DNA of 11,811 bases. Source: a virus. The stretch lies in the UHGV virus genome UHGV-1871853; one strand, given 5' to 3'. A model generated the notes under the pieces. That model worked only from the letters and a program-made list of their open reading frames with translations. It was not told where the DNA came from and made no database searches. This document shows, in pieces, positions 6,684 to 11,697 of this stretch. The position numbers were made by a program, and so were the translations under genes. Each line of letters starts with the position of its first letter. The stretch's first letter is position 1.

Positions 6684-8060
6684 TCATACGTCAGCCCCTT
6701 GTGCATATCGCCTGCCACGTGCAGCGGGTGCATTTGATGTTGTGCAAATCTGTCTGGCTTCATCCTGGTCACATGCAACAAAGTGTCCGTTACAGAACCG
6801 CTGGTAAACCGTACCAAGCGAGCCAAAACGGTTTTTCGTCACAATGATTTCAGCAAATGGCGCGGCGCTACTGTTCTCGTCATATACCGCTTCCCGATAG
6901 AGCATGATGATTGAGTCTGCGTCCTGCTCAATGCTTCCTGAATCACGCAAATCTGCGTTTGTCGGGCGTTTGTTTGGTCGCTTCTCAACATCGCGCGAAA
7001 GCTGACTCAGGGAGATAACCGGTGTTTTCAGGTCTTTCGCCATCGCCTTCAGGCTTCCGGAGATGTGAGCAATTGCGAGGTCGTTGCGGTCTGCTTTCGG
7101 CTTCTCAATCAGGCCAAGATAATCCGCCATGATGAGTGAGAGGTTTGGATTTTCCTGTTTGTGCCGTTCTGCGATTGAGCGTATTTCTTCGACCGATAAC
7201 CGCGAGGCATCGACTACCCATACATCCAAATCTGCAAGCTGACTCATGCCGTTAGCAACACGCGCCCAGCCTTCGTCATCCATCGATGCAGGATTTCGCA
7301 GTACGCTAACCGACATCCTCCCGGCGTTGGCAATGCTTCGCTCTGCAATCTGCAATGCGCTCATTTCCATCGAGAAAATCAACACTCCTCGCCGGACGTC
7401 AGAACCAGGAATAACGCGGCTTGCAACGCCTTCGGCAATCTTCAGCGCCAGCTCGGTTTTCCCCATACCAGGACGAGCAGCGATTATCACCAGGTCTTCT
7501 GCGTTCATCCCTCCGGTGATGGCGTCAAGTTCTTCTATTCCGGTCTTCAGGGTATCTGACTCTTCTCCGTTCCTCAGACGCCTGTCAAGCGTGTCGGTGT
7601 AGTCAGTGATGATTTTCCCTAAGCGTACCGGTTTAACCTCGTCACGGGGCTTTCTGATGGCTGAGAGACGCTTTACAAGTTCATCCATCGCCTGACTCGA
7701 TGCGTCGATGGTTCCGCTTTGGATTGGTTCACGCATTTCATCCATGATTTCCAGCACCAGACGGCGGTGATAGTTATCCGCGACCATTCCGGCATATCCC
7801 TTCAGGTTTGCGGCACTCGGGCAGTTTTTGCTGGTCATCAGGATTGACGTGAAATGCTCCTCTCCGCACTCCTCGGCAACCATCAGCGCGTCGATTAGGT
7901 TTCTGTTTCGCGCCTGCTTGCGGATAACCTCGAAGGCTTTCCGGTAGAGCGGAATTGAAAACGCTTCCGGCTCCAGCGTTGCCAGAACGTCGCTGGCGGT
8001 TGGTGTTAATCCACCAATCAGCAGGCCACCGATAACGCTCGCTTCGATATCCTGTCTCAT
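6684..8060 (-). CDS. Replicative DNA helicase, DnaB family (458 aa), in the position of lambda P
   Basis: Walker [13 protein letters not shown], a DnaB-like N-terminal domain and RecA-fold C-terminal motifs ([28 protein letters not shown]). Lambda P is not a helicase, so the replication module is not lambda-type. Stop overlaps the upstream gene start. Confidence 0.95.
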
Positions 8061-9004
8061 GCAATCCCCCTGTCTGCAAACTTCCCTTCCCGTACTCCCG
8101 TTAACGAATCTTCCCTCAGCAGGTAATCAAAATCAGCCGTCCAGCCCGTGTCGTTGTCTCCGAAGTAAAACGGCTTGGCCTGATGCACAAACGCCCTGAC
8201 ATACGCTCTGAAACCGTCCACATTTGGCGTTTTCAGTTGCGGGATGATTTTCTTCAGGCGGCGTTTGCGTTTCTCGTTGACCGCAACAGCGTGTGGAAGT
8301 CTGTCACCGACTTCGGTGTTGTAGGCGTTCAGGAAGGATTCGTAGTCGATTCGTTCTGCCTTGCGACGTTCAGGTTTAACCTGCCCATCGCCTCCCCCAT
8401 TGGGGGGTAGGGGGGTATTATTTATATTCTTGTTAATACCTTCTTGTTCATGATGTGCGGTTGTTTGTGCGGCTTCATGTGCGCTTTCATGTGCGGAACG
8501 TACGCTGAAAGCCGCGCCATTACTGGCTTCATCATGTGCGGCATCATGTGCGGTTGTTTGTGCGGCTTCATGTGCGGGTGAATTGTCCATTTTTTGAGCA
8601 TATTCATGGTAATTTGTGATGGTGATCACACAACCTTTTTGCTTCTCCCCATCAATAGAGATCATCCCCTCTTTCACAAAAACCTGAAGCATCCGCTCAA
8701 CCTGATCACGGCTTGCCGGCTTGCCATGTCTGTCGCATAACTGAAGACCTAAATCAGCTGCTGTCACAACCAGTTGACCGGGTTGCAGATGCCATTCATG
8801 ACCTTTGAAATTCGATTTGTATGGCTTTCTGGCGGCATTCAGGAGAAGGTTTTCCCACAGGGTGCGAAGATAAACATCTTTCGCCCATGACTGTTTCAGA
8901 ATGCTCCGGTACAACGGAATGTAACCAGTTTTCTGGTTCTCCATCCTGTTGCTCCTGCGCTCGTGTGCGGCGCTGAAATCGTAGATTTTTGCTGTATTGC
9001 TCAT
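8057..9004 (-). CDS. Replication initiator, O-like (315 aa), containing the iteron origin
   Basis: The N-terminus [17 protein letters not shown] resembles the first residues of lambda O (MTNTAKILNF, from memory). The central region encodes a repetitive [10 protein letters not shown] linker that coincides with DNA iterons, and the 3' end is overlap-coupled to the helicase gene. Confidence 0.85.
8393..8445. promoter_or_regulatory. Origin-associated AT-rich element (8416-8445) preceded by a G/C-rich near-palindrome CCCCCATTGGGGGGTAGGGGGG (8393-8414)
   Basis: tattatttatattcttgttaatacc follows the iterons in the direction of O transcription, the same order (iterons then AT-rich unwinding region) as ori-lambda. 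Confidence 0.6.
8449..8577. repeat. Iteron array of the replication origin: eight ~12-bp repeats with core TGTGCGG in two blocks of four, separated by 30 bp
   Basis: Cores at 8454, 8466, 8478 (variant TGTGCGC), 8490, 8535, 8547, 8559 and 8571. A ~36-bp unit (catgatgtgcggttgtttgtgcggcttcatgtgcg) occurs twice. The array lies inside the O-like gene, as ori-lambda lies inside O. Confidence 0.8.
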
Positions 9005-9006
9005 AA

Positions 9007-9279
9007 CTACCTGCCTTGACGAAAGACCTTAAGAACATCGTTAAACTGACTTACGGATATGTCTTCTTTGAGCAGCTTTTCCAGAAATGCGTTTGGAATG
9101 AACGTATATCCCTCCTCTTTTGGTAGAGACGGGAGCAACGCCCTCGCCTCAGCCTTCAGAAGCTCAGTTCTGGCAACTTTCACAAAAGAGATTTGAGTTC
9201 TTTCATCAATGGAACGAAGGAAGCGCAAACGCTTAGCTTCTTTGTGTGTATCAGGTGGATTAAAGCCTTTGTTTCGCAT
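9007..9279 (-). CDS. Hypothetical protein (90 aa) inserted between cII and the O-like gene
   Basis: Start taken at the internal ATG at 9279 with a GAGGTAATTAT Shine-Dalgarno: MRNKGFNPPDTHKEAKRLRFLRSIDERTQISFVKVARTELLKAEARALLPSLPKEEGYTFIPNAFLEKLLKEDISVSQFNDVLKVFRQGR. The longer listed ORF from 9552 overlaps cII and is rejected. In lambda, O follows cII directly. Confidence 0.55.
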   Translation of the reverse strand: MRNKGFNPPDTHKEAKRLRFLRSIDERTQISFVKVARTELLKAEARALLPSLPKEEGYTFIPNAFLEKLLKEDISVSQFNDVLKVFRQGR

Positions 9280-9290
9280 ATAATTACCTC

Positions 9291-9357
9291 GCTGGATGTT
9301 GTTAAAATTCCATTTGTATTTGATCAGAACGCTCGGTTGCCGCCGGGCGTTTTTTAT
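9291..9357 (+). ncRNA. oop: oop-like antisense RNA with its promoter and terminator (t_oop), antisense to the 3' end of cII
   Basis: The plus strand carries GCTCGGTTGCCGCCGGGCGTTTTTTATT (9331-9358), matching lambda t_oop: a 6-bp stem GCUCGG/CCGGGC followed by U6. A perfect -10 TATAAT lies at 9279-9284 with a weak -35 TGGATT at 9256-9261. The 5' end is inferred from promoter spacing. Confidence 0.7.
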
Positions 9358-9595
9358 TGGTGAGAATCGAAGCAACTTGTCGTGCCAATCGGGCCATGTC
9401 GTCGTCAACGACACCCCATTCAAGAACAGCAAGCAGCATTGAGAACTTTGGAATCCAGTCCCTCTTCCACCTGCTGATCTGCGACTTATCAACTCCCACA
9501 GCTTCCGCTGTCTTCTCAGTTCCAAGCATTGCGATTTTGTTAAGCAACGCACTCTCGATTCTTAGAGCCTCGTTGCGTTTGTTTGCACGAACCAT
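9302..9595 (-). CDS. cII: Transcriptional activator CII (97 aa)
   Basis: From the ATG at 9595: MVRANKRNEALRIESALLNKIAMLGTEKTAEAVGVDKSQISRWKRDWIPKFSMLLAVLEWGVVDDDMARLARQVASILTNKKRPAATERSDQIQMEF, near-identical to lambda CII. The upstream extension of the listed ORF is rejected. Confidence 0.96.
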   Translation of the reverse strand: MVRANKRNEALRIESALLNKIAMLGTEKTAEAVGVDKSQISRWKRDWIPKFSMLLAVLEWGVVDDDMARLARQVASILTNKKRPAATERSDQIQMEF

Positions 9596-9674: not shown

Positions 9675-9706
9675 GCCCTTTTTCAGGGCTGGGATGTGTA
9701 AGAGCG
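9675..9706 (-). promoter_or_regulatory. nutR: boxA (CGCTCTTACA) and boxB hairpin (GCCCTGAAAAAGGGC)
   Basis: Minus strand reads CGCTCTTACACATCCCAGCCCTGAAAAAGGGCATCAAATTAAACC between cro and cII. boxB is at 9675-9689 and boxA at 9697-9706. Confidence 0.9.
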
Positions 9707-9714
9707 GGAATGTC

Positions 9715-11067
<1,353 letters not shown>

Positions 11068-11260: not shown

Positions 11261-11370
11261 AGCATTCAAAGCAGAAGGCTTTGAGTAGCGCGAAATGCAG
11301 CTGCAAGACAGCAACCGTGGAGATAAGCATCACGGCGCGTTACTCAAAGCTAACTGACAGGAGAATCCAG

Positions 11371-11697
11371 ATGGATGCACAAACACGCCGCCGCGAACGT
11401 CGCGCAGATAAACAGGCTCAATGGAAAGCAGCAAATCCCCTGTTGGTTGGGGTAAGCGCAAAGCCAGTTAACCGCCCTATTCTCTCGCTGAATCGCAAAC
11501 CGAAATCACGAGTAGAAAGCGCACTGAATCCAATAGACCTTACAGTGCTGGCTGAATACCACGAACAGATTGAAAGCAACCTGCAACGTATTGAGCGCAA
11601 GAATCAGCGCACATGGTACAGCAAGCCACGCAGTGAAATGGGGGTGACTTGTGTTGGTCGCCAGAAAATGAAATTAGGCAGCAAACCACTTATTTGA
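11371..11697 (+). CDS. N: Antiterminator N (lambda-like, 108 aa)
   Basis: From the ATG at 11371 with an AGGAG Shine-Dalgarno: MDAQTRRRERRADKQAQWKAANPLLVGVSAKPVNRPILSLNRKPKSRVESALNPIDLTVLAEYHEQIESNLQRIERKNQRTWYSKP... The arginine-rich boxB-binding motif matches lambda N; the last ~20 residues differ from lambda as I remember it. Confidence 0.93.
   Translation: MDAQTRRRERRADKQAQWKAANPLLVGVSAKPVNRPILSLNRKPKSRVESALNPIDLTVLAEYHEQIESNLQRIERKNQRTWYSKPRSEMGVTCVGRQKMKLGSKPLI

Follow-up and report, generated by a model that had tools for sequence, protein, structure and literature searches.

A constrained 90-codon gene in the cII–O slot of a CUS-3-like lambdoid phage, beside a plausible oop antisense unit

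In phage lambda the oop RNA overlaps cII by 55 nt, and a general lambdoid layout of cII, oop, 'orf' and O has been set out by Hayes et al. (2012; PMC3349717). The same work describes a 33-bp conserved block that covers the oop promoter pO and the 5′ end of oop, and a lambda/P22 hybrid that recombined inside this block carries the −10 element of lambda and the −35 element of P22 (PMC3349717). P22 oop transcripts have been detected (PMC13397905), and an OOP-like ncRNA was annotated from the transcriptome of the BTP1 prophage (PMC7067206). A literature search on DUF2740, on hkaW and on 'between cII and O' returned nothing useful. Here we analyze an 11,811-nt stretch of DNA (the window; UHGV virus genome UHGV-1871853), for which an original prediction, made from the sequence, had proposed that a 90-aa gene was inserted between cII and O and that its 5′ end was overlapped by a chimeric oop-like antisense RNA. 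We regard it as probable (roughly 0.8) that the locus as a whole follows the standard lambdoid layout, with an ordinary oop allele, and that the 90-codon gene, orf90, is a real occupant of a known slot and the retained stump of an initiator gene.

Over the queried region, the window and Enterobacteria phage CUS-3, a P22-like Lederbergvirus, are 99.3% identical; the window presents the immunity and replication region reversed. The features of the locus are collected in Table 1; they can be read as the standard lambdoid early-right order, in which pR would be followed by cro, nutR, cII, a convergent oop/pO unit, a small slot gene, the initiator gene and the helicase gene. Several elements outside the cII–O junction were also recorded. 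A lambda-type nutR boxB (GCCCTGAAAAAGGGC) is found on the − strand between cro and cII (~9676–9690), and a lambda-like N ORF at 11281–11697. The repressor gene that accompanies them and the near-lambda cII is named just 'prophage repressor' in CUS-3, and, judging from the lambda-type boxB, N ORF and cII that adjoin this repressor gene, the immunity region may be a mosaic. Directly after cI lies a 158-aa ORF with a signal-peptide-like N-terminus (10591–11067, + strand), for which no match was found in NCBIfam or PADLOC and whose counterpart in CUS-3 carries 'boundary sequence' as its sole annotation. This ORF may be an accessory gene expressed in the lysogen.

Table 1. Positions in the window of the genes and of the predicted elements at the cII–initiator junction.
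Feature	Position	Strand	Basis and remarks
cI	10034–10666	+	
Cro-type HTH gene	~9715–9915	−	
cII	9302–9595	−	Pfam Phage_CII, E = 5e-48; product identical to lambda CII at 95/97 aa
t_oop intrinsic terminator hairpin	9326–9353	+	Terminator scan and fold; T6 at 9350–9355; within the cII 3′ end
Predicted oop-type antisense RNA, ~66 nt	~9291–9356	+	Inferred from where the −10 lies and from comparison with the 77-nt lambda oop
Shine-Dalgarno GAGG of orf90	complement of 9287–9290	−	7 nt before the ATG; invariant in relatives
Predicted pO −10, TATAAT	9279–9284	+	Sequence; aligns with CATAAT of lambda and P22 pO
Candidate pO −35, TGGATT	9256–9261	+	3/6 match, 17-nt spacer; in orf90 codons 7–8
orf90 (90 aa, MRNKGF...FRQGR)	9007–9279	−	ORF list; phrog_2519
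Conserved DNA island	8960–9020	.	Covers orf90 stop and initiator start; sliding identity 90–95% vs 45–70% in the flanks
O-like replication initiator	8057–9004	−	Pfam Phage_rep_O; phrog_345/27581
DnaB-type helicase	6684–8060	−	

The sequence evidence identifies orf90 (ATG at 9279–9277, TAG stop at 9009–9007) as a real protein-coding gene, and the original prediction of an extra 90-aa gene with a good Shine-Dalgarno sequence between cII and the O-like initiator is thereby upheld. The product gives a full-length profile match to phrog_2519, a PHROG of unassigned function (E = 1.9e-57, 90/90 positions). Pairwise dN/dS values range from 0.06 to 0.13 with saturated synonymous sites, and both halves of the gene are constrained, the C-terminal part at 0.03–0.06. 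Read in the other two frames, this DNA yields ratios above 1.6, the constraint thus being frame-specific, and family members down to ~50% identity stay 90–93 residues long. We found orf90 in 57 phage records, namely CUS-3, JEP4, Gally, HF4s, Kapi1, TL-2011a and ~48 Stx2a-converting phages, and in 279 of 5426 complete E. coli genomes (~5%). It is mostly annotated as a hypothetical protein (among the E. coli records listed, 12 of the 279) and is without annotation in the CUS-3 GenBank record. The family has few members: 34 proteins came up when 5.8 billion sequences were searched by word index, and 15 matches when 1.84 billion representatives were searched exhaustively with a profile. Searches of Pfam, NCBIfam and PADLOC with orf90 yielded nothing significant, and a weak match to JetB (E = 0.021) was disregarded. 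The order cII, orf90, O-like gene is present in 7/7 diverged loci from Salmonella, Scandinavium and metagenomic assemblies, and a DnaB-type helicase gene comes next in the three whose contig reaches that far. The stop codon of orf90 lies 2 nt before the ATG of the initiator gene; this spacing makes translational coupling from orf90 to the initiator plausible, and we consider it likely. Taken together, orf90 would be an early gene read from the pR transcript, equipped with a strong Shine-Dalgarno sequence of its own and placed in a variable slot before the initiator.

The junction as a unit also recurs across otherwise different phages. Positions 8950–9364, which hold the 3′ end of cII, oop, orf90 and the 5′ region of the initiator gene, are 99% identical between Lederbergvirus podophages and Stx2a-converting Sepvirinae (e.g., LC616031 and JQ011316), and the sequence comparison points to a recent module exchange between P22-like podophages and Stx2a-converting phages. 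In TL-2011a a 797-aa protein follows the initiator in place of a DnaB-type helicase. Two records were flagged, OR850084.1 and OR850760.1; an enterobacterial cII–orf90 segment, with an orf90 of 74% aa identity, occurs in a 2.7-kb record that bears the name 'Staphylococcus phage SA 1298 Kay'. This name is probably mistaken, unless the sequence stems from contamination.

To trace where orf90 came from, we compared the family with profiles of phage replication proteins. The Pfam family Phage_rep_O (PF04492) gave sub-threshold matches in 9/10 orf90 family members, all in one register that sets residues 55–88 against profile positions 6–39 of 95 (best E 0.0011), and the same members also match lambda-O-type PHROGs. 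The score of orf90 is 14.6 bits, below the gathering threshold of 28.7, and the domain is not complete. When orf90 was aligned by hhalign with lambda O, P22 gp18 and the sal5 initiator, the probability was 83.4% (E = 8.5e-6); residues 53–88 of orf90 correspond to residues 24–59 of lambda O, and invariant residues coincide (G57/G28, N63/N34, S75/T46, Q78/Q49 and R87/R58 in orf90/lambda O). The homology search that the original prediction had called for thus gave, besides phrog_2519 over the full length, this remote match to the lambda-O/gp18 type. A tblastn search with the C-terminal 46 aa of orf90 at E ≤ 10 retrieved no O genes, and it is by profile methods only that orf90 can be linked to the O family. 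Compared with the N-terminal origin-binding domain of lambda O and P22 gp18, orf90 has only about the first third, at a level below the Pfam threshold; the parts expected to contact DNA are missing, and an unrelated N-terminal part of 52 residues stands in front.

The neighboring initiator is of another type. Its comparison with orf90 by hhalign gave 0.2%, for which reason we rejected a local partial duplication, and it holds a complete Phage_rep_O domain of its own, for which reason we rejected the idea that orf90 is one half of a split initiator. A recent truncation of an extant gene was rejected as well, as no full-length initiator with an orf90-like N-terminus occurs among the 15 matches. 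The profile evidence suggests that orf90 probably descends from a displaced initiator gene: its C-terminal third would derive from the first two predicted helices of an initiator N-domain of the lambda-O/gp18 type, and a different initiator would have recombined in, joined immediately before its own Shine-Dalgarno sequence, and displaced the older gene, whose 5′ stump, orf90, would have been kept by selection. The two junctions are alike, with AGGTAATTATATG at the start of orf90 and AGGTAGTTATG at the start of the initiator gene. With P22 orf48, the DUF2740 protein, orf90 shares its position, being the first gene after cII, starting at pO and abutting the initiator. The similarity in sequence is only a hint: residues 10–32 of orf90 are faintly similar to orf48 (hhalign 8.8%), PF10872 (DUF2740) gave no match to orf90 at E ≤ 10, and phrog_1913 was matched by only 5/10 orf90 family members (best E = 0.035), so that orf90 does not qualify as a member of that family.

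The N-terminus of the O-like initiator resembles that of lambda O in the alignment. The conserved island at the orf90–initiator junction codes for an N-terminus close to the MTNTAKILNF of lambda O, which is the end of that protein recognized by ClpX. A second in-frame ATG of the initiator (M21, ~8942–8944) is preceded by a strong AGGAG Shine-Dalgarno sequence, and in several relatives gene callers place the start here. At the first start, a decayed core of lambda pO can be discerned, with CATAAC (9002–9007) in place of CATAAT and TCGTAG (8975–8985) in place of TTGAGT. This remnant fits a history in which orf90 came to lie between cII and an older pO/O junction. As a candidate for a second lambda-like pO, the same pair (CATAAC with TCGTAG as −35) was rejected, given that it is decayed here and reads CATCGC in relatives. 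Further downstream, the O-like gene contains about nine periodic 12-nt repeats, (T/C)TCATGTGCGG, in two clusters (8447–8496 and 8528–8589), adjoined by an A/T-rich stretch with two G-runs (8400–8445). On sequence grounds, the region 8400–8589 looks like a replication origin with putative iterons inside the initiator gene, as in ori-lambda. In lambda plasmids, insertions as small as 6 bp between pO and ori abolish replication (PMC3985674), whereas the window naturally tolerates a separation of ~276 bp between pO and the initiator gene in which the putative iterons (8447–8589) lie.

Turning to the antisense unit, we aligned the oop-sense strand of the window with those of lambda, P22, Min27, APC_JM3.2 and Salmonella phage 103203_sal5. 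A block of 46 nt (9324–9369) is the lambda t_oop sequence without any difference, as anticipated by the proposal of a conserved hairpin inside the cII 3′ end. The hexamer TATAAT occurs 3 times in the window against an expectation of 3.35, which by itself is not above chance; the significance of the copy at the start of orf90 comes from its position and conservation rather than from its mere occurrence. Across an alignment of seven loci, representing five distinct relatives, the string AGGT(N)AATTATATGCGAAA is invariant, although the ORF bodies share only 68–72% DNA identity with the window; the string can also be aligned with lambda pO. The start codon of orf90 had been described as lying inside this hexamer; the hexamer is indeed there, but base 9279 alone is common to both, and the other five bases of the hexamer belong to the spacer between the Shine-Dalgarno sequence and the ATG. 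A role as the oop −10 element is plausible given this invariance and the alignment with lambda and P22 pO, although the −35 candidate matches the consensus at only three of six positions and a consensus promoter scan of the window did not call pO. Except for a recurring TGG, present also in P22 (TGGTCA), the −35 candidate is weak and poorly conserved. Rfam at gathering thresholds matched no family anywhere in the window.

In the predicted RNA, 11 nt are intergenic and 55 nt are complementary to the cII 3′ end, stop codon included (cII stop at 9302–9304). It shares with lambda OOP the 55-nt overlap with cII, a t_oop inside cII and a −10 element that overlaps the start codon of the next gene, while its 5′ part folds into a weak hairpin of 4+2 bp rather than the lambda-type 5′ stem-loop. 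In our model, pO would fire on the + strand, transcription would start at ~9291 and stop at the lambda-identical t_oop (~9356), and the resulting RNA of ~66 nt would pair with the cII message over its final 55 nt; if the analogy to lambda holds, RNase III cleavage and a lower level of CII would follow. The sequence thus makes it plausible that the antisense unit is an ordinary oop allele, whose expression in this phage we infer.

According to the original prediction, the insertion of orf90 made a novel chimeric antisense RNA that represses both cII and the translation of the inserted gene. It is true that the −10 element abuts the translation-initiation region of orf90, and a duplex beginning at ~9291 would extend over positions −12 to −20 relative to orf90, which fall within the typical footprint of the 30S ribosome. 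However, with its predicted start near 9291 the RNA begins 12 nt upstream of the ATG and stays 1 nt short of the Shine-Dalgarno sequence; it reaches neither that sequence nor the ORF, and the claimed overlap with the 5′ end of the gene does not hold. The geometry is that of lambda oop and O, where the distance to the ATG is 11 nt instead of 12, and the insertion therefore creates no second target. Moreover, the pO −10 and the 5′ segment of oop are 94–99% identical in Min27, phiXuzhou21-Stx2a, APC_JM3.2 and others. Because the same −10 and 5′ segment are found in phages without orf90, the sequence comparison identifies the non-lambda 5′ part of oop as a widespread allele and not as a product of the orf90 insertion. 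The word chimeric is apt insofar as the RNA is a mosaic relative to lambda, identical over its 3′ 46 nt, different and shorter at its 5′ end, but the insertion did not create it. If oop affected translation initiation of the next gene, it would do so in lambdoid phages generally, and we deem a dual-target RNA born of the insertion improbable. Slightly less so, though still unlikely in our judgment, is that pO is inactive and makes no oop RNA, its conservation reflecting constraints of translation initiation or recombination. The weak, unconserved −35, the negative promoter scan and the fact that the conserved string includes Shine-Dalgarno sequence, spacer and ATG would agree with this; yet the intrinsic terminator has stayed intact and identical to that of lambda within a coding region, the −10 hexamer is perfect, and P22 makes oop with an equally poor −35. 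The observation behind the original prediction is thus confirmed and its interpretation partly supported: the gene is real and the oop unit plausible, while the dual target and the novel chimera are not supported.

As for what orf90 does, the structural searches offered little guidance. It is predicted to be all-helical, and an AlphaFold2 model built from 12 sequences shows four helices at low confidence (pLDDT 60). The search of this model with Foldseek against the viral models of BFVD gave nothing at E ≤ 0.001, leaving the proposed structure search fruitless, and a sequence search of the PDB with the family profile had no match. Klebsiella and Yersinia phages have the N-domain type of the neighboring initiator but no orf90, and in them the initiator comes after other genes and before a P-like or differently annotated replication protein, not a DnaB-type helicase; orf90 is therefore accessory to that initiator and not essential. 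Our working view, held with low confidence and based on sequence features, is that orf90 may be an accessory protein of the replication module that acts via protein contacts rather than DNA binding, since it is without the recognition helix and wing of the domain. A more specific and rather speculative version, to which we give little weight, sees in orf90 a domesticated N-terminal initiator fragment that decoys binding partners of the domain's first helices. The partner would be another initiator subunit or a host factor, and orf90 could modulate the replication module to which it belongs or hinder a co-infecting phage of the lambda or P22 type from replicating; its C-terminal part fits the foreign (lambda-O/gp18) initiator type and not that of its own neighbor.

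A doubtful but real possibility is that orf90 has nothing to do with replication and is an accessory gene (e.g., for host takeover, anti-defence or phage competition) that happens to sit in a recombination-prone slot. The occupants of this slot do differ between phages (DUF2740/phrog_1913, phrog_1331 or none), and the initiator type works elsewhere without orf90. On the other hand, orf90 stands directly upstream of an O-like initiator in all contexts examined, the phage records with orf90 also match this initiator N-domain, its partial descent from an initiator points to replication, and PADLOC gave no meaningful match beyond the weak one to JetB. We consider it very improbable that orf90 is an inert stump of module exchange with no function as a protein. 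Such a remnant would explain why the C-terminal third resembles a truncated initiator domain (34 of 95 Pfam positions) and why CUS-3 has no annotation at this place, but it is at odds with dN/dS values of 0.03–0.23, saturated synonymous sites and a frame-specific signal, and with the preservation of length and frame in members down to ~50% identity. A real gene retained by selection remains the reading we prefer. As such, orf90 encodes a small protein under strong constraint that is present in ~5% of complete E. coli genomes and in many Stx2a-converting phages; if it modulates the initiation of replication, it would bear on the replication of Stx phages after induction.

Finally, we set the locus beside its best-known relatives. 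The lambda oop is likewise antisense to the last 55 nt of cII and ends in an identical terminator, and in lambda the start codon of O lies inside the pO −10 (CATAAT; GTCATAATGACTCC) just as the start of orf90 meets the −10 here. The two differ in the part of oop that does not overlap cII, which measures 22 nt in lambda and 11 nt here, the long 5′ stem of lambda being missing; in the −10 itself, where a 2-nt expansion (ATTATATG vs ATTATG) has given TATAAT instead of CATAAT; and in the −35, which is located in orf90 instead of in O. The expansion that gives CATATAAT is common to the window, Min27 and APC_JM3.2, while P22 and sal5 have a CATAAT with the start codon of their small ORF inside it. 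Min27 (annotated as Stx-phage-related) and APC_JM3.2 have a near-identical pO −10, spacer and oop 5′ segment (TTTCGCATATAATTACCTCG.TGGATGTTGTTAAAATTCC), but the homology with phages of this type stops at 9272, about seven bases into orf90, and after the ATG they carry a 47-aa DUF2740-like ORF and no orf90. In Min27 (L004) this ORF lies unannotated between cII and O (1368–1508) and differs by one residue from the annotated ORF of APC_JM3.2. The latter matches phrog_1913, the family of P22 orf48, whose PHROG label 'tail protein' looks like a mislabel, the gene being in the replication region.

P22 offers the closest parallel in gene order. In its record the annotated oop promoter extends across the orf48 start and the oop terminator lies within c1, and in the order c1, oop, orf48, gene 18 and gene 12 a small gene likewise stands between the oop promoter and the initiator, with a DnaB-type helicase downstream. 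In both phages the end of the small gene abuts or overlaps the start of the initiator; the occupant of the slot is a 48-aa DUF2740/phrog_1913 protein in P22 and the 90-aa phrog_2519 protein in the window, and in lambda the slot between cII and O is empty. The synteny comparison suggested for the cII–O junction therefore places P22 orf48 in the same slot, and together with the layout of Hayes et al. (2012; PMC3349717) it means that the arrangement is not new to the phage of the window. A start codon within the pO −10 is the ancestral lambdoid arrangement, as seen in lambda O, P22 orf48 and that same layout. The locus confirms the oop/pO unit, with a start codon in its −10 element, as a conserved, portable junction for the exchange of replication modules among lambdoid phages. 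The layout itself has already been documented for P22 and other lambdoids, and orf90 is a new, uncharacterized occupant of this known slot.
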